Shown here: in pieces, positions 2,011 to 33,948 of the stretch
How the letters are laid out: every line of letters begins with the position of its first letter
Numbering within the stretch: position 1 is the first letter of the stretch
Assembly: GCA_051453625.1 (NCBI GenBank)
Contig: JBOZIK010000001.1
Location: 2,361,677 to 2,395,791, forward strand
DNA from: Welwitschia mirabilis
Taxonomy: Eukaryota
Direction: 5' to 3'
DNA length: 34,115 bases
Notes under the pieces: generated by a model
What the model was told of the DNA's origin: nothing
Database searches by the model: none
The model's input: the letters and a program-made list of their open reading frames with translations, nothing else
Position numbers and translations under genes: made by a program

Positions 2011-3889
2011 TATTTTCATTCATTTGGATTTCTATATTTTTGTTTTAATTTATGTTAGAGCTAAAAAACTTTATACTATATTTAACAGGATTAAAGGCAT
2101 AAATAGAATCACGATGATTGTTAGGGTATTGATTGATTAAAATGTTTTTGGTGCATGGAAAAGTTAAGATAGTAATAGCTAGGCAAAAAGAATATAAAGA
2201 TAAGGAACACTCTTACCAAACTAGTGATGAAGACACAAGTTGTTAGAGCAAGAAACATTTAAGGAGATTTTTCTAAAGTTCTTCATATAAAAAGATTCTA
2301 ATGATCTAACATAATTATTCTTCTAATTTTATTTTATCACTAGAGTTATCAAACTAATTTATTTATTTAAAATAATTTTCTATAATCAATGATTTAATTT
2401 ATTAATAATTACCTTGGTTATACTTTATATTAGAAATTACGAAAGATATAATTAATAATAGTTATGAATGTCTATAGAGNNNNNNNNNNNNNNNNNNNNN
2501 NNNNNNNNNNNNNNNNNNNNAAAAAAAAACGAAAGGGAAAAAAATTCTGAAGAGTCAACTAGTAAAGCCTTCTTATAAACATTGGAAAAAATACTAAAAA
2601 CGATGTGGCACATTGATCTATAACATAAAAGTCTTCATGCATTAAAGGATAACTACTGTTCATGATTTTATGGTTCTTAAAAACTTAATTAAAGCCTACA
2701 TCTTCATATCTTCCATCATACCAAAACCACCAAAAAAATAAATAAATAAAATTACTATAGTAGTTTTTGATAATATCCTACATGATTTCAGTTTTTCATT
2801 TTATTTTCATGTTTGTTTTTCACATTCTTTAAGTTTAATATCCATTCAATGATAAAGTAGTCTCATAAATTGAGTTTTAAGGACAGAGTTTATAAACTAT
2901 TTGGTTTATTTCTGATTTTAAATGCATCTATACTAAGGCTAATATATTATTGTCTGAACAATAACATATTAAGGGATTAAAGTGAAGGATGTTATAATTA
3001 ATTAGTTGAAACTAGGGTAACTATGATATTGTTAGAAACATAGATATTAAGGAATTCGAATGAATTTCATAAAATAAATAAATAGTTTATTTGAAAGACA
3101 ATGACCTAGATGTGATGTAGCTAATTTTCTCTTAAGTCTAAGCTAAAAATTCATTCTTCAGAAATAATATCATTAGCAATTCCTTACATTTATATTAAAC
3201 ATTCTTAAACATGTTAAAGTCATTATCAATTATTTAAGAATCTTTTCAGAATTGAAGTAGGATTATATCCTAGTTTGGTATACTTTTCAGAGTATTTAAT
3301 CTATATTTGTCTAATAGCTTTATTTTTTTAAAAAAATACAATATTTATTTTGATTGTCAAGAATCTTTCTATTACCTTGTAAGAAGTAGAAGTACTAGAT
3401 ATGAGTTAGTATTAGATTAATGTTAATATGATTTAAATTATTAAGGTTATTATAAATGATTGTAATAAGATTGATAATATTAAATTATGTTAGAAAGTCT
3501 CATGATTAAATTGACCTATTAGCATAATAGAGTTGAATATATCTAGTAAGATGAATTTAATTGTTAAAATGTCAAATGTTAAATTTGTTCAATAGAGTAT
3601 AGCCAATAATAATTTGATAGACTTAAAGTTAACAAGCTTACCTTATGGGTTAAGATAGCATGAACAAAGTCACGCTATTAAAAATTTATTACTATTGGGA
3701 TAATTTGGCATAGATAATGCTGACATTTTATTATGTTACTATAAGGTTAGTAGAATGAGGTATCAAATGATATGACATTATGAAATGATTACTCAAAGTT
3801 GGCCATTGGCTAAACTAAGTGTAAAGAATTAATGAGAGCTTGTTTATCAAAAACCTAAATTAAGACACTAGTTATATATGATCCATAAA

Positions 3890-4960
3890 TTTTTTTTTCA
3901 GTAAATTTTTAAGGCTTGGCACAAAATCAAACCCTTCCTTCATTGGCATCTGGTTAAACTCATTTACAATCAGTGAGCTACTCATTCTCCTTGGTGTTCT
4001 CTGGCCTTCTAAATAGCAAATAACTCTTTAGCTTCTCACTCTCTAGTTAGATTTCATAGATTGGCTAAAGCAGGGCTTCTTCATTTATATCAATTTGTTA
4101 CTCTTTAAGAAAATTATATCAAAATCAATTATTCTCATCTTAAAACCAAATAGAAGGCTCAAAAATTGGATCTTCCTATCATCAAGCTTATTGAAGAAGT
4201 GGTCTCTAAATTTAATTAGCATCATAGCAACCTGAATAGATGGGATGATTGATTTTGGCCTGATGGCAAAAATATTACTCAGATTTCTCTTTCTTCAACT
4301 CGCACTTGGTTCCAAGATTTTGATAGTCTCATAAAAAATATGAACTCCAAATGGTGTCTAAACTGGATGGAAGATAAATAAAAACAATTTTTCAAGGAAG
4401 TTTGGAGGATCCAAGCTCATCCTAAAACCAAACTTTTCTTTTGGTGTCTCATTCATCAAGGGATTCCTATGGCTCATCATCTTTAACTTTCAGGGGTAGC
4501 TCATCCTTTGTGTCCTCTATGTTAAGATCCAGAAATCTTTCAGCATACTTTTTGGGATTGCCACATTACCAGTCAAGTTTGGGATTTGATCAAAAGTATT
4601 GACAGACTAAGTACATCTCTTTAATATCCTAATTTTATTTTATTACAAGATTCTCCAAACAGCTTCTCCAAGTAGGGTTGGAATATCCTAATCCTAGAAT
4701 GTGTTCGCTTTATTTGGAAATATCGATGTCATGCTTGGTTTAATAAGGATCCCCTTTAAGACTTTTCCACAGTAATCAAATTTTTTATTCTCAAGGGAGT
4801 TCTTCTTCAATATGAAGTTTTAGGTCTCTGAGCTAATTATAAATTTCTAAAGCTCCAATATACTAAGTTCCTCTAAAAGGCTGTTGCCTTTTAGTTCCCA
4901 GTTTTCTTTAGTTTCCAAGTGCTAGTAACTGTCCCAGGGGGTGCGGTTACTTTCTATTAT
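3890..4960 (+). mobile_element. 5'-truncated L1-type LINE 3' end with RT-associated zinc-binding (zf-RVT) domain, pseudogenised
   Basis: 4400-4590 reads WRIQAHPKTKLFFWCLIHQGIPMAHHL*LSGVAHPLCPLC*DPEIFQHTFWDCHITSQVWD (CxxC..H...C with the flanking W pattern); upstream IFKAWHKIKPFLHW at ~3905-3947. Confidence 0.85.
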
Positions 4961-5023
4961 TTTTGGGCTCTATTAAAGTGTTCTATTTTGTCATGATATT
5001 TCTCTACCTTAACAACTCCGACA

Positions 5024-5076
5024 CCCCCCTCAACCCCCTGACCCCCCCCTCCCCATCACCACCCCCCACCCCATCC
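5024..5076 (-). repeat. C-rich low-complexity tract (G-rich, quadruplex-compatible, on the minus strand)
   Basis: Six runs of 4-8 C within ~55 bp in an otherwise very AT-rich region. Confidence 0.8.
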
Positions 5077-5552
5077 ACTAGAACATTTTAGGAAGGTAGC
5101 CAATCTGAGATGATGAATATCATGCACATATTAATCCTATTAGCTAATGAAAAATGTGCCTAGCCATTGTTCCTGGCATGGATAGGGGGTAGGACCTCCG
5201 TGTCTGATGTATTATTTTACTTTCAATTTTGTATACATGATACATTATCCTCTTAATTCTCACCATGTATTTCTCTTTGTGTTTTAAGGGATTTAAAATA
5301 TCTATTTCAAAAGATTTGTAGAGATGAAAATCCAAGCATTTAGGGATGAATAGCCTATTAGGAGATGAGATCAGTGTGGTAGTAAATAGTGGCTTTTTTA
5401 AATTTATTAGGGCTTAAAGTAAAATCTGGGAGGAGAAAATCAGTTTTACTTTGAGATTTTTTAGGGAAAAGAGACAATTTTTGGTAGAAGGAAAAGTTCA
5501 ATTCCATTGAAAAATCCATTGAGAATTTGAATAAGGTAACCTTTCAATGAAT

Positions 5553-5862
5553 TGTTGGGTATGTAGTCCCCATGATGTAATGGATTCTAGTTTATTAGAT
5601 TCCACTAAAAGCCATGGCTTTTGGTGTGATGGTAAAGGGCCCAATAATTGGTATCAGAGTTAAGGTTATTGGTAGGTCTCAGGTTCGAGTCTCCCTAGTG
5701 ACTTCCTAGTTCATGTAAGTACTTGACATGTTGAGTGAGGGAGAGATTATTGGATATGTAGTTCTCATGCCCAGCCCGACAAGTGAGTAAATGTAATGGA
5801 TTCCAGTTTATTAGATTCCACTAAAATTCATGGCTTTTGGTGTGATGATAAAGGGCCCAACA
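5553..5862 (+). mobile_element. Complete 310-bp TRIM with 5-bp target-site duplication TGAAT
   Basis: TSD TGAAT at 5548-5552 and 5863-5867; 5' LTR 5553-5646 (TGTTGGG...CCCAATA); PBS 5649-5659; PPT GAGGGAGAG 5737-5745; 3' LTR 5748-5862 (TATTGG...CCCAACA); terminal inverted repeat TGTTGGG/CCCAACA; no coding capacity. Confidence 0.95.
5649..5659 (+). promoter_or_regulatory. Primer-binding site complementary to the tRNA-iMet 3' end
   Basis: TGGTATCAGAG 2 nt after the LTR end. Confidence 0.9.
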
Positions 5863-5869
5863 TGAATCC

Positions 5870-6900
5870 ACATGAATTTCCTTTTAGATTCAAAACTTAA
5901 AGCTCTGTCTCCATCCCTTGTATTTTTCAAATTATTGAGATCATTTAAGTTTTTGATTATGAATGAAAGTGCAAATGAGAATGGAAGTAGTTTGCATGTC
6001 AAATTTTTTAATTTATAGACGCAGTGGCTAGACCGAGGTAAGATCAAAAAGCTATACATAGAGTAAGGGATCATTGTGTTCAAATGCATGTCTTTAGCAC
6101 TATAAAAGTCAGTGAAAGGTGGAATGGTGTGAATATCACAAAGTTGGTACGATTCACACAAATATGCAGTGCCAGGATAATCATCACTGAAGATGTCAGG
6201 ATACGAGGAAGAGCTTGGGCAAACATCATTTCCGCCTTGTCCGTAAACACTTTTTAATGATGGATACATAGGGTATGACTCACGTCTTTGATCACAGAGA
6301 TTTGAATCCTTTGCTTCATCACCCGAGCATTCCCCATAGAATGATATGCCCAAGGATCCTATTGGAAAAAATGACTTACAGTCAATGGTGAGGATGGTTA
6401 TAACATGATCAATGCATCTCTAAAGGTATTGAAGGCAAAAGAAGAAGAGACACTACAATGGTTGAAGCAGTTGCAGTCATAGGCATCCAAAAAATAGAAA
6501 GAAATGAAGAACATGCTGATCGATGAGATAAGGAAGCACATCTAGATGCATTATTGCTTCTATGAGAAGTTCATTTTCGAGTCCAATGATAAGATGCTTT
6601 GCAGAAAGAAAGTATTCCCAGAGTCATCACATCTTCATTTACAGAGAACAAGTATCCACTTATAAATCCATTCTTCTTTATAGATGATCTCATGGCTAGG
6701 GTATATGTAGGGTTTACAATATTTGGGCTATAAGAAACACAAAGTTCTCTCCAAAAATTATGTGCGTTATCATCGTCATCAATGAACATGAATATGCTAC
6801 GTTTTGGGAAGTGTATCACGAGATGTCAAAAACCATACTTGGCATTAACAAAAGTAGATAAATGTGTTAGGTGTGGCACAACCTTAGGGACTTGCCTAGT
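5870..6900. pseudogene. Unidentified coding-like island (decayed gene or TE fragment); strand uncertain
   Basis: Higher GC and about 14 retained CpGs versus CpG-poor flanks; minus ORFs of 180 and 82 aa; plus frames also look protein-like between stops. No family recognised with confidence. Confidence 0.3.
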
Positions 6901-7329: not shown

Positions 7330-8140
7330 GAGCAAGGCATCTACATCCCTTTCAATTTACATTTATTATTCTTTGTGTATTGTGTGGACTAAAATTCGAA
7401 TAAGGCATAATATTCTAGTTATTTTAGTTGATGGTCCTATTCCACTCTAGAGGAGATAGAATGAAGTGAAGGGTAGAGGAGAAAACCCTTAGAACCATGT
7501 AAGTTGAGATATGGTCAATCCATCAAAAGAGGAGATGATGAGAAATCTTCTAAGTTATCCTTAAGAATTATTAAGAGTACATAACTAGCCTTGTAGTATC
7601 TTGAGATGAGTTTGTGAAATTTTGCAAGATGTGTGGCATGAAATTGAATAGTGCACACATCAACAGGGTGTATAACATGTTGTTGTTAATGGATTGATTA
7701 TTAGGATAATTTGACATAAGTAATGCCAACATTTTATTTTGCTAGTATAAGATCAGCAAAAGAACGTTTCAAATGATATGACATTATGAAATGGTTATTC
7801 AAAGTTAGCCATTGGCTAAACTAAGTGAAGAGAATTAATAAAAGCTTGTTTGTTAAAACCCTAAATTAAGACATTGATTATATATGATTCATAAATTATA
7901 GATCTAAGTCAAAACATTTTGGTGAGATAGCCAAATTAATATGAGGAATATCATGTATATATTGATCCTATTAGCATCCTATTAGCTAATGAAAAATAAG
8001 TCCAACCATTGTCCTTGGCATGACCAAGTTTTGGGGCCTTCATGTTTGATGTATCATCTTAGTTTTAATTTTTTATACATGATGCATTCTCCTCTTAATG
8101 TTCATCACATATTTTTATTTGCATCTTAAGGGATTTAAAA
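7330..8140 (-). mobile_element. Second, uninterrupted copy of the old LINE-like sequence
   Basis: 7700-7897 aligns to 3695-3890 and 7913-8140 aligns to 5082-5298 (e.g. CAAATGATATGACATTATGAAATG; CCTATTAGCTAATGAAAAAT; TTAAGGGATTTAAAA). The left boundary is a guess. Confidence 0.6.
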
Positions 8141-15099: not shown

Positions 15100-15665
15100 A
15101 TATTTTATTTTTTATTTATAATAAATATATTTTATTTATTTAAAATAAAAATTAAATAATATATAATAGTGTCTAGGACAAATCAGTCATTAGGTATTGG
15201 TTTCTTAGCCAAAAAACAAAAATTAAATTATATGTAATGGTTTTCAAAACAAATTACCCATTAGGCATTCACTTCTTAGGCAAAAATAATAACAACATTT
15301 TTATTTATAATAAAAATAATTTATTTATTTAAGATAAAAATTAAATAATATGTAATAGTATCTAAGATAAATCACCCATTGGGTATTAGCCTCTCAATCA
15401 GAAAATAAAAATTAAGTAATATGTAATGGCGTCCAGGACAAATTAGTCATTGGACATTTACTTCTCGGACAAAAATAATAATAATATTTTTATTTAAAAT
15501 AAAAAATTTATTTATTTAAAATAAAAATTAAATAATGTATAATAGTGTTTAAGACAAACCATCCATTGAGTATTGGCCCCTTGTCCAAATAAATAAATAA
15601 ATAATATGTAATGGTGTCCAAGACAAATTAGCCATTAGATACTAGTCTCTCGGTCAATAAATAAT
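15100..15665. repeat. Higher-order tandem repeat: ~188-bp unit x3, each containing two related ~50-bp cores
   Basis: Core like ATATGTAATGGTGTCCAGGACAAATTAGCCATTGGGCATT at ~15169, 15239, 15358, 15428, 15545 and 15613 (alternating ~70 and ~118 bp spacing). Confidence 0.9.
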
Positions 15666-15699
15666 GCAATTTGAATATATAGGAGAATAAGCATAAATT

Positions 15700-16450
15700 C
15701 AATAGATTATTGTGTTAAATAATTGAAAGATAGAATATGAAATACAAAGATGTCATTAAGGTATTTAATAAATTGATTATTTAGTGTATTGTCCCCATTA
15801 TGAAAGCAAAGAAAGCATTGATGGAACTTAAATTTTGATGATTTATTTCTCATCAAAACACATAATATTATGTTTATGTCTTTGTAAAAATGGTATTTTA
15901 AAGTGCATGCCTCTAGAATTATCAATAGTGGATTGTCATTAGAAAAGACAAGAAAGTCAACATGTTGTTAAAAATTTGTACATGATGTCAAAAAGAATAC
16001 TTTAAGAAGTAGTTAAAAAAATAAAAGCTATTATTAGATAGGGTTATGAAGAGTAAGAGTAATAATAATACCTTAGAAATAAGAATGTTTTAACTACTAA
16101 GTAAAATAAGTAAATAAAGCATAAGTAAATAAGACATAACTAGATTACAATAATACTATGCTAACATATAGAGAATATCACATTAGAGATATCCATGAAT
16201 AACTATGAAATAGAATTCCATGTTTGATGTTAGCTATAAAGTAAGAGATGGGTATCCATTTATGGGTTCTTTAACCTTTGATAAAAGAAGTGCCCTATGT
16301 ACGTATACACAAGATCATCCTTGAAATCTAAAATAAGTAATGAAGAAAGAAGTGGAAATAAAAAAATTTAGGATTTCCTAATAATAAGGGTAAATGATAA
16401 TTGATACCTTAATTATGAATTCCTTCTACTAGGTTGTCTAACTTTAAATA
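15700..16450 (-). mobile_element. Decayed Ty3/gypsy integrase remnant
   Basis: Minus frame DDLVYTYIGHFFYQRLK...QTWNSIS*LFMDIS (cf. DVxxYVxxCxxCQxxK...PWxSISMDFI); FHNGDNTLNNQFIKYLN at ~15755-15805 (cf. FHPQTDGQTExxNxxLExYLR). Confidence 0.4.
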
Positions 16451-26640: not shown

Positions 26641-26651
26641 TGGTATCAGAG
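26641..26651 (+). promoter_or_regulatory. tRNA-iMet primer-binding site
   Basis: TGGTATCAGAG after ...TTACA-AG. Confidence 0.9.
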
Positions 26652-26699
26652 TAGGTACTCATGAAAATGTGTAACAAACTTGAGTAAAATATAATAAAG

Positions 26700-29600
26700 G
26701 AGTTCTTAACTATTAGAGGTCTACTCTTTAATGAGACTATAACTATGTCTATTAAAAATGAGGATTTAGATCTACTTGAAGTATTTGTATTTTGAAATGG
26801 GGTAGGCTAGAAAATATAAATATGTAACATCATATAAGATAGTAAAAAATATACATTTATGTATTACCATGCTAAAGGATAGAAAAACCTAAATAGATAA
26901 AAAGAAGAAGGCATATATGTGGAAAGGAAGTTTGGGATCTTTTAGAAGGTTTTTATAAAGGCATATTAGTAATTAAGTAATCCAAGTTACTGGTGTTAAT
27001 AAATCAATTTAAGAATCTCAAAGTGAATAAAGGTGGAATAATACATAAATAGTTTACTAGAGGAATCAACATTGTGAATGAAATTCATGGAATTAATGGA
27101 GATCTACTAGAAGAGAAGGTGATCAAAAATATTATTTAGATTACTCATTCTAGTTTAAATACAAAAACCATCACTATGGAGGAATCGAGGAACTTTATTA
27201 TAATTAAATTCAAAGAATTATAAAGTAGCTTAATAGCATATGAAATGAACATAATTGAAGATGAGATCATCAAAGAAAAGACTATAACACTCTTACTAAA
27301 TAAGACATTGAGGAATTATAGTAAAGAAAGATCTATAGTTGCATTAGATAATGACTTAGATAATGATGATGAATATGAACTTTCCTTAATCTATGAAATA
27401 ATAAAACAACTACTATTTAAATGAAATAGAAGAAGAAAAAAATAAATAAAGACAACCAAACCCACAAGGCAAAGATAAGAGTAAAGGTAAGAACATTGAG
27501 TTCTATAAAATTAATTTTTTAGATATAGAATGTTGGAATTCTAGGAGTAGAGGCCATCTTGCCTCAAATTATCTAAGTACTAATACAAGACAAGAAAACA
27601 CAGAAATACAAAAGGAATAATAAAACCCTATACATTAGTTGAAATGATGACAATAAAGTTATAGAGGATTAAAAAAGTTCTTACCTATCATTCATGGAAG
27701 TTACCCATGAAATAAAAGACTTAAATTTATAGATATAATGATCTTAATAACTTGAATTATGAAGAATATGAGCTCATACTTCAACGAATGTATGAATTAA
27801 TATTTGAAAGATTTGTTAATATTTAAAAATTACATACTAAATGAAAAAGATGTTTCATAACTGTAAATTAGCCTATGAATTAAAAAAGAAAACTCTTATT
27901 CCAAGCTAAAAAATGAAAATATTTCTCTTAAAAGATTGGTAAAGTAAGTACTAAGTTAGATAAAGTAAAATAGAATATGCAGGATGCCAAATTTATTAAT
28001 GAAAGATTGATCCAAGGAAAGAGAACAATGCTTTTAAGGAAGAATAATGCTTCTACAAATCAACCTCAAAAGGACTCACAAAATGTTTTCACACATTAGA
28101 AATACAAAATAAGCTATGAATATTTGTTACATTCAAATAATATGATTTGTTTTTATTTTCATAAAAAATTGCTTTATAAAAGGTATTATCCATTACTTTG
28201 TCATCAACATTATTGCATTAAAGTTTAGAAAGAAAAAGAAAGATGGATAAATAAATTTGTCTTTAAAAATAATATTAAGAAGGTGTCAAATAAAATTAAT
28301 AGAGATCTTATTGCTTAAATAGAATTTCAAGATATAAAAAGAGTATTTAGTACATTAAAAGTGGTTTTTCAAGGCATATAATAGGTAATAAATCACTATT
28401 CAATAGTTTGATTGAGTACGATTATAGAGTAGCATCATTTAGAAACTACATTAAAGAATTAATCAACAACATAGGCATAATCAGAGGCAGTAACATTTTA
28501 AGGATAAATAATGTCTTTTATGTGATGGATTATTACATAATATTTTAGGTATAAGTTAGTTATGTAAATCTAACTCTAATATAAAGTTTTAAAAAGTTAG
28601 CTATAGTGTAATGGATAACACTTTTAGTAAAATGTTGTTTTCTGGTCAGAGAAAGGTCAATGTATATGTTACATCTCTTGTTAACATTACAAACAAGAAT
28701 ATGAGATATTTTATTATTATAATGAATGAACTGAGGATGTGACATAAGAATCTACAACATGTAAAGATGAAATTAATGAAAACCTTATCCATCAAATAAC
28801 TTGTAAAAGGTATTCCTAAGTTTAAAAGCTTTGATCACTTAGTATGTGATTCTTTCTTAGAGGGGAAAAAAAAACAAGGATAAGATTCAATAATAAAAAT
28901 TTTATTCACACTTCTTGTCCACTATATTTAGTACATTTAGATTTGAGAGAACCTTCACAAACTAAAATCTTAGAAAATAAAATATATTACCTAATTTTAG
29001 TTGATGATTTTTTTAGATTTACATGCATAACCTTCCTTGGTTACAAGGATGAGGATTTTAATAGTTTTACTAATTTATGCAATACATTGTAGAATGGAAA
29101 AGGATATCATGTCAAATAATGGTAAAGCATTTCAAAATTCTTGATGTATTGAATTTTGTGAACAACATGGGATTAATCATTAGTTTTATATACCAAGAAT
29201 TCCATAGACAAATGAAGTAGTAGAGTGAAAAAGTTAAAATCTAAATAAAATGACTAGAACCATGACACATGATCAAAAGGTAGTACATCATTTTTGGATA
29301 GAAGTATTCTACACCACATGTTACATATAGAACAAAGTATTAGAAAGATCATTTATTAAAAGAAACTTCTTATGAGTTTTAGCATGGTGCAAAACTTCTC
29401 ATAAATCAAATGTTTTATTCTAAATGAAAAGAAACAATTACAAAAATTTGATGTTAATGCCAATAAAGATATAGTTCTTGTTATTATACATTTAGCAAGT
29501 CTTATAAAACATTTAAAATACATATTCTAACTTTAGAAGAAACCTTTAATGTATGGATGAATGATAATTGTATAGGATAATGATGAATAAAAGGTTTAAA

Positions 29601-33082: not shown

Positions 33083-33890
33083 AAACATGTAATTCTTGAC
33101 ATAATGGGAGGCATTTCAAGTATGTTCTGATACTTAGTATATTGAAGGAGGACTAAAGGTAAAGAAGACCAATTTACGCTACTTAAGAAGCTTGGGCAGA
33201 GTGTCGTCCTCACTGTCATCCCCATGACAGAGGGGACAACATCTTATTATGATAGTTACAAAAGAGTAGCACATGGGCATGCAATCCAAGGTGTTGTCTC
33301 CTCTGTTGTGTGGATGACCAATAGGACGATAACATCGATAACATGTGTGGGTAATTCATGGGAGCACAGGCACAGAACCCAAGCCCTTAAGATGGCATCA
33401 TCCCTTAGTCATGTGGACAACAGACAGGACACCATCTATTTTTACACTGCAATAATAGATTTCATTGTGAAGAGTATCAAACAGGCCAAACATGTAATTC
33501 TTAACATAATTAGAGGTATTTCAGGCATGTTATGGTACTTAGAATATTGAAGGAGGACTAAAGGTGAAGAAGGCCAATTTACGCTACTTAAGGAGCTTAG
33601 GAAGCATGTCATCCCCGCTGTCGTCCCCATGACAGAGGGGATGAAGCTCATTACGACAGCTACATAGGAGTAGCACATGGACATGCAATTCAAGGCATTG
33701 TTCCCTCTGTTGTGTGGATTACCAACAGGATGACAGCATTGGTAACATGCACGGGCAATCCACGAGAGCATAGGCACATAACCCAAGCCGTTAAGATGAT
33801 GTCGTCCCCTTGGTCGTGTGGACGACAGATAGGACAACATCTGTTTTTACACTGTGGTAATAAATTTCATTGTGAAGAGTGCCAAATGGG
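33083..33890. repeat. 405-bp tandem duplication with three ~40-bp palindromes per unit
   Basis: AAACATGTAATTCTT at 33083 and 33488; colinear to ATTTCATTGTGAAGAGT in both units. Confidence 0.95.
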
Positions 33891-33948
33891 TCATTTGGAC
33901 TATTAGGATTTTCTTAACAAACATCTAGGATTACAGTTCATTATAAAA

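Follow-up and report, generated by a model that had tools for sequence, protein, structure and literature searches.

Does the mini LTR retrotransposon (TRIM) at positions 5553-5862 of this DNA, copy B below, contain a promoter of the tRNA type? A first-pass annotation of the 34,115-nucleotide stretch analysed here (the window) had proposed that the junction between LTR and primer-binding site (PBS), together with the internal domain, mimics a tRNA gene and may give the whole family an internal Pol III promoter. In its full form, the proposal combines the LTR end, the PBS and the internal domain into one tRNA-type (type 2) internal promoter; the family would then be a TRIM driven by Pol III (TRIMp3), with a promoter located outside the body of the LTR. 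The evidence assembled here points elsewhere: the element is probably a canonical, non-autonomous Copia-type TRIM belonging to an abundant plant family, and its tRNA-like block is probably not part of a working tRNA-type promoter.

A complete TRIM and its tandem-array relative

Copy B is a complete canonical TRIM of 310 bp in which all five defining TRIM features are found. It lies on the forward strand, as do all features described here, between identical copies of the target-site duplication TGAAT (5548-5552 and 5863-5867). Its 5' LTR (5553-5646, 94 bp) opens with TG and has a 22-bp deletion relative to the 3' LTR (5748-5862, 115 bp, TG..CA); aligned with each other, 5575-5644 and 5791-5860 show 94% identity. 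The dinucleotide AT separates the end of the 5' LTR at 5646 from a PBS of the initiator-Met tRNA type, TGGTATCAGAGT, at 5649-5660, which begins 2 nt past the LTR end, has one mismatch to the canonical 12-mer and carries the motif that the accessible text of PMC7215508 gives as the conserved plant PBS. The internal domain of 101 bp contains a decayed hairpin at 5658-5674 (a 5-bp stem and a 7-nt loop when intact), whose 5' arm is formed by the letters that extend the PBS on its 3' side, and a B-box-like block, GGTTCGAGTCTCCC, at 5682-5695, in which the 11-mer 5682-5692 agrees with the B-box consensus at 10 of 11 positions. It ends in a purine run at 5733-5747, the polypurine tract region GAGTGAGGGAGAGAT, which stands directly before the 3' LTR and is identical to the corresponding letters of the array copy at 13 of 15 positions. 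The LTR motif occurs three times in the window against none expected. The element is non-coding: the open reading frames of at least 70 aa that overlap 5553-5862 all enter from the flank.

A relative of this element, copy A, is found in a tandem array at 1-255, where it is clipped by the window edge. It consists of an internal tail (1-21), an LTR (22-111), an internal domain (112-212) in which a PBS-like sequence (114-125) is again preceded by AT, and a truncated LTR (213-255). Its segment 86-255 is 84% identical to 5621-5790 over 170 bp, and the LTR starts of the two copies agree at 38 of 43 positions. Tandem arrays are described as common among TRIMs in the accessible text of PMC4717578. The first-pass description of 5553-5862 as a TRIM with a tandem-array relative is borne out by this anatomy and by the likeness of copy A.

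No paralogous empty site was found for copy B: the duplication that involves its flank ends at 5298/8140, 255 bp before the TRIM, and therefore affords no empty-site comparison. This dispersed duplication pairs 3693-3891 with 7699-7897 and 5082-5298 with 7913-8140 at 74-84% identity. Just upstream of a duplicated segment lies a C-rich tract of about 55 bp (5020-5075), conspicuous in DNA of 27% G+C.

Elsewhere in the window, a second initiator-tRNA-type PBS, TGGTATCAGAGT, is found at 26641-26652 after ...TTTACAAG; the sequence that follows it is unlike the TRIM internal domain, and the site may mark where the LTR and PBS of a further LTR retrotransposon meet. The open reading frame at 28850-29092 appears integrase-like by eye and has no Pfam match, and Pfam matched none of five neighbouring open reading frames. 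Two further repeats were noted: a satellite-looking tandem array at 15106-15666, whose six copies (60-82% identity) show nested periodicities of about 71/118 and 189 bp, and a pair of 405-bp direct repeat units at 33083-33893 (80-87% identity), in which either strand carries 134-aa open frames unmatched in Pfam.

Box motifs at the LTR/PBS junction

Every string quoted in the first-pass annotation was found in its place, in both copies. In copy B, AGGTC (5674-5678) and TCA (5679-5681) lead into GGTTCGAGTCT (5682-5692), which is followed by CCC, while GGCCCAATAATTGGTATCAGAG occupies 5638-5659, 44 bp upstream of the B-box-like 11-mer. In copy A, GCCA/TGGTTAT/TGGC is found at 124-138 and GGTTGGAGTCTCC at 147-159. 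The motif had also been said to keep its CpG in a CpG-poor window. The AT-rich, plant-like window is indeed poor in this dinucleotide, with 110 observed against 592 expected, but the CpG of the motif is not the only one in the element, since copy B retains two, at 5686 and 5777.

A B-box match at 10 of 11 positions with its CpG intact counts in favour of a Pol III promoter. Such matches nevertheless occur in the window at chance level: the consensus GGTTCGANNCC, with at most one mismatch allowed, finds a single match in the window, where 0.60 would be expected, and at least one turns up in 43 of 100 shuffles. It is doubtful that the B-box-like match exceeds chance. The GGTTC core of the box, which lies outside the LTR, is shared by copy B and the majority of the family; copy A has GGTTG, with TTGGA in place of TTCGA, and this change of the central C in the core of the motif further argues against a promoter function.

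The second element of a tRNA-type promoter is missing. Between 5600 and 5740 the best A-box matches have three mismatches to TRGCNNAGTGG, which specifies nine positions, and two to looser forms. The stretch that had been taken for an A box and D arm assembled at the LTR end consists of nothing more than the LTR end and the PBS. The junction itself is generic: a search with the junction pattern gave one match, in the metagenome contig L001, where the same LTR end, AT and PBS belong to an unrelated mini-element, rich in GC, whose likeness to copy B goes no further than these. The L001 element (601-735), on a GC-rich, grass-like contig, is a very small LTR-like element with the same LTR end, GGGCCCAACA, the AT and the PBS, from which only about 30 bp lead to the next repeat.

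Comparison with tRNA and 5S models

Searches with RNA models gave a similar picture. At the gathering score, Rfam returned no match in the whole window. At E<=10 it returned four matches in a 601-base slice, three in a 101-base slice of copy B and two in a 101-base slice of copy A, none of them to a tRNA. The Rfam check proposed in the first-pass annotation, carried out here on both window copies, thus left the tRNA model silent at any threshold tried, which weighs against a Pol III promoter. ARAGORN at its default settings found no tRNA in the window. At an 80% threshold it reports cloverleaves at 101-171 and 5624-5706, homologous places in the two copies, and these relaxed-threshold matches speak for a tRNA-type promoter; across the whole 34 kb the same threshold yields 12 matches, and a 70% threshold yields 99. 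The cloverleaf of copy A survives to an 85% threshold, as do those of 6 of 500 dinucleotide shuffles, while that of copy B survives only at 80%, where 41 of 500 shuffles do likewise.

There is, then, a faint tRNA-shaped signal, which comes mainly from the copy A hairpin plus the T-loop-like motif and is far below that of a tRNA gene or a recognisable pseudogene. With no tRNA from Rfam at E<=10, none from ARAGORN at default and no A box, the proposed mimicry of a tRNA gene by the LTR/PBS junction and internal domain does not hold. Identification as a tRNA gene or pseudogene was rejected, given a cloverleaf that appears only at ARAGORN thresholds of 80-85% and the lack of an Rfam match. A hammerhead (retrozyme) reading and a 5S reading were likewise rejected, neither having an Rfam match; the 5S box C is matched once in the window, at 16245, and box A four times, in each case beyond 27 kb, so that none of these matches falls in the element.

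Family reads and possible conservation of the block

Reads were aligned to 5480-5930 at a likeness of at least 80% from two RNA runs (X15 and X18), one DNA capture run (X21) and one DNA contig set (X4), all under the same species label. The family is abundant, being represented by 1716 DNA reads (X21), 933 and 668 RNA reads (X15 and X18) and 2342 contig pieces (X4). Beyond these sets, the LTR pattern had no match in metagenome and viral contigs, and two internal-domain patterns had none in viral contigs.

Relative to the family reads, copy B carries many private changes. Upstream of 5609 most reads diverge from it (301, 205 and 533 reads with loose ends) and show, just upstream of that position, another LTR segment in a 30-nt stretch containing TATAAAG. 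Because most reads carry this different segment, copy B belongs to a minority LTR subfamily.

Among the 40 best-supported variants listed, out of 117, those in the internal domain fall at 19 positions, none within the PBS (5647-5659) and none within 5682-5695, and these two are the longest variant-free stretches among the variants listed. The other 77 may include minority variants inside the block. For the 14-nt block the nominal probability of such a gap is p=0.043 if the block was specified beforehand, which favours a promoter; a gap of at least 14 nt arises somewhere in 68% of random placements, which does not. Reads of a diverged subfamily that cease to match after 5659 still end in GGGTTCGA in three of the four runs (30-nt stretches). 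Between the two window copies, the block is identical at 14 of 18 positions, against 32 of 37 in the adjacent 37 nt. The test that the first-pass annotation had laid down, greater conservation of the B-box-like motif than of neighbouring internal sequence, therefore gives a divided answer: the motif is the majority form in the reads and free of variants among those listed, while the comparison of the window copies goes the other way. Taken together, these data are weak evidence that the block is conserved across the family, and they do not indicate the cause.

A rival explanation takes the block for a cis-acting RNA signal beside the PBS that handles tRNA-binding factors, or for an isolated B box that TFIIIC occupies but from which nothing is transcribed (of the extra-TFIIIC type). 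The position of the block directly after the PBS hairpin would suit such a role, as would a conservation comparable to that of the PBS among the 40 of 117 variants listed. A two-sequence consensus fold adds one compensatory pair, C-G to U-A, which joins the PBS extension to a segment past the B-box-like block. That pair is, however, the sole compensatory one among 27 predicted from two sequences, and neither internal domain is more stably folded than its shuffled versions (z +1.14 and +1.44; 175 and 189 of 200 shuffles reach an equal or better fold). We regard this explanation as quite improbable.

The PBS extension, the hairpin and the primer tRNA

The hairpin that precedes the block is intact in copy A, at 123-139, where a 5-bp stem encloses a 7-nt loop and the T-loop-like motif follows four bases further on. 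At 5660, 5661, 5663, 5673 and 5674 the majority letters of the family reads are those of copy A; since most reads carry them, the hairpin is the normal state of the family and the version in copy B is decayed.

The origin of the 5' arm can be read from the letters that follow the PBS. In copy A and in most family reads these letters match a miR1511 antisense probe (PMC4470002), bar one extra base. miR1511 is linked evolutionarily to the initiator-Met tRNA and targets LTR elements, according to the accessible text of PMC8215267. PBS and extension together match miR1511 antisense at 5649-5668 and 114-133. Because the post-PBS letters continue this match, the likeliest reading of the hairpin's 5' arm is as part of a PBS of about 18-19 nt, and the 3' end of the initiator-Met tRNA itself presumably carries the letters of the extension. 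A search for a plant initiator tRNA with an acceptor-stem pattern built from the PBS returned 106 + 6 loci, and ARAGORN found no tRNA in these 112 records. One idea considered was that read-through had made the entire internal domain a copy of the primer tRNA; compared by eye, its likeness to that tRNA seemed to stop after the extension of about 18-19 nt. To judge from the match, transcripts of the family would be natural targets of miR1511 or of 3' fragments of the initiator tRNA.

The layout of the intact hairpin brings in a further explanation, namely that hairpin and block are an inert relic of a tRNA or of a piece of a tRNA-derived SINE, taken up beside its PBS by an ancestral element and comprising anticodon arm, variable loop and T arm and devoid of promoter activity. 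The order seen in copy A (stem of 5, loop of 7, stem of 5, four nucleotides, T-loop-like motif) has the spacing of the 3' half of a tRNA, and it is this layout that ARAGORN accepts at 85%, at the shuffle frequency given above; moreover, Kojima suggests, in the accessible text of PMC10886601, that tRNA-bearing TRIMs arose through the insertion of SINEs. Against a relic stand the silence of the Rfam tRNA model and the poor pairing of the supposed T arm, whose stem, by reading, forms only three of five pairs even with the family majority letters. The 5' arm of the hairpin is in addition already explained by the PBS extension, and no donor tRNA can be named. Such an origin is unlikely.

Transcription

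LTR retrotransposition requires an RNA with an identical R sequence at both ends, and the geometry of a Pol III transcript can be examined in this light. Copy B contains two TTTT runs only, at the same place in each LTR: one is at 5619-5622 in the 5' LTR, 24 bp from the LTR end; the other, at 5835-5838 in the 3' LTR, is the first to be met downstream of the B-box-like block. The first run has high family-read depth and no variant among the 40 of 117 listed. A tRNA-like Pol III start, some 50-60 bp before the B box, would be expected at or just after the first T4, and a transcript ending at the second T4 would then carry a terminal repeat of 0-4 nt, none of it usable. It is the equivalent placement of the two runs that would deprive a Pol III transcript of a usable repeat; were the start further upstream, Pol III would meet the first T4 at once. 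The Pol III terminal repeat of Cassandra, by comparison, measures 18 bp, with start and terminator both in the LTR (accessible text of PMC10886601).

The first-pass annotation had suggested that read-through in tandem arrays could supply the terminal redundancy. Judging from these positions, the T4 run would hinder or stop such read-through, at least in the subfamily of copy B, and the suggestion loses ground accordingly; copy A has no T4 run. The TATAAAG upstream of 5609, in contrast to this Pol III geometry, suits a usual Pol II promoter in the LTR, which would start transcription about 25-35 bp downstream.

RNA depth along the element tracks DNA depth, with ratios of 0.30-0.71 for X15/X21 and 0.21-0.46 for X18/X21 that fall gently from 5' to 3' without a step near 5630-5640. 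No pile-up of RNA starts or ends was found along the element in X15 or X18, which are cDNA and oligo-dT libraries, nor did a Pol II transcription start site appear in them. Mate orientations of the RNA reads are equal, and reads continue beyond the LTR ends into flanks that do not match, with 69 and 57 such reads behind 5862. The RNA signal has the look of copies that are passively transcribed as part of other transcripts. The lack of a step in the depth ratio and of a pile-up of starts counts against a Pol III promoter as far as cDNA and oligo-dT libraries register one; because poly(A)/cDNA and oligo-dT libraries would miss most Pol III transcripts, the RNA reads do not decide the Pol III question.

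A Pol III-driven TRIM has precedents in Cassandra and Helenus (accessible text of PMC10886601), and these add to the points in favour of a type 2 promoter formed by LTR end, PBS and internal domain. With the A box and tRNA-model matches missing and with T4 runs that would leave no usable R, we consider it very unlikely. The tRNA-type internal promoter proposed for the family is on these grounds (A box, tRNA models and T4 geometry) unsupported rather than refuted.

A probably ordinary TRIM with a tRNA-like appearance

The canonical, Copia-type TRIM that we favour would be transcribed from its LTR by RNA polymerase II, as other TRIMs are, and would be copied in trans by the proteins of a Copia element with the initiator-Met tRNA as primer. 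The accessible text of PMC4717578 derives TRIMs from Copia elements by internal deletion. The tRNA look of copy B would then have three sources. The first is the PBS, which is complementary to the 3' end of the tRNA and therefore repeats the tRNA's own 5' acceptor strand. The second would be the small hairpin, in whose 5' arm the PBS continues beyond its 3' end, and the third the GC-rich 14-nt block, which would merely happen to hold the T-loop-like GGTTCGA. The block has probably been kept for a cis role in the element RNA (packaging, dimerisation or primer handling), or else the family is simply young.

That GGTTCGAGTCTCCC is a working B box, through which a plant TRIM recruits TFIIIC or Pol III by way of a promoter straddling the LTR end, PBS and internal domain, is highly improbable. 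If true, it would place a B box giving rise to a non-coding RNA of about 200 nt, or a chromatin-boundary site, at hundreds of loci. It would also realise the TRIMp3 principle in a new arrangement, the only plant examples to date being Cassandra (5S) and one Helenus of Selaginella, and would mean that a widespread plant TRIM is driven by Pol III from outside the LTR body, extending the principle of Cassandra and Helenus and scattering TFIIIC sites near genes. Two points can be taken from the locus. An element primed by initiator tRNA always repeats part of that tRNA in its PBS, and a single adjacent T-loop-like 11-mer can be enough to give an ordinary TRIM the appearance of a tRNA gene, which calls for caution. 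A 14-nt block that follows the PBS hairpin and is seemingly as constant as the PBS is, furthermore, a candidate cis signal for the borrowing of Copia machinery by TRIMs, a process that is poorly understood.

Comparison with known systems

Canonical plant TRIM families were reportedly described by Witte et al. in 2001. Gao et al. (2016) list 156 TRIM families in the accessible text of PMC4717578, and Kojima (2024) calls the canonical plant TRIMs "TRIMp2" in that of PMC10886601. Searches of the running text of papers yielded no relevant paper for strings of the copy B family and no report of a tRNA-type box in a TRIM internal domain; three motif strings of copy B had no match in one text supplement of PMC4717578, and the word tRNA is absent from the main text of Gao et al. 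in its accessible form (PMC4717578). The family may already stand in the supplements of the Helenus paper or in the sequence sets of TRIM surveys.

Copy B shares with tRNA-derived SINEs the character of a short, abundant, non-coding retroelement and a B-box-like GGTTCGA. Those SINEs, however, have a 5' tRNA-like head with both boxes and a LINE-type or A-rich tail, and are without LTRs, PBS and polypurine tract. Identification of copy B as a tRNA-derived SINE was rejected, as LTRs, PBS, polypurine tract and a 5-bp target-site duplication are present and the A box is absent.

Helenus (TRIMp3) resembles copy B in being a TRIM with a tRNA-box-like motif, and embodies the same idea of a small-RNA promoter driving a TRIM. 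In Helenus each LTR contains a tRNA-like sequence in which box A (TRGCY..YGG) and box B (GGTTC) are conserved, and the only plant Helenus reported in the accessible text is that of Selaginella (PMC10886601). The LTRs of copy B, in contrast, hold neither box; its sole B-box-like match lies in the internal domain and it has no A box. Cassandra is, like the copy B family, a TRIM of plants; it shares the PBS motif and occurs in tandem arrays (accessible text of PMC7215508). Copy B differs from it in having no 5S boxes in or near the element and in a Pol III geometry that would give no terminal repeat, against the 18 bp of Cassandra.

The closest correspondence is with the canonical plant TRIMs. 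These too are smaller than 1 kb and non-coding, with two short LTRs, an initiator-Met PBS, a polypurine tract and a 5-bp target-site duplication, and, like the family of copy B, they form tandem arrays and exist in many copies, some of them in transcribed regions. Between them and copy B we find no structural difference.
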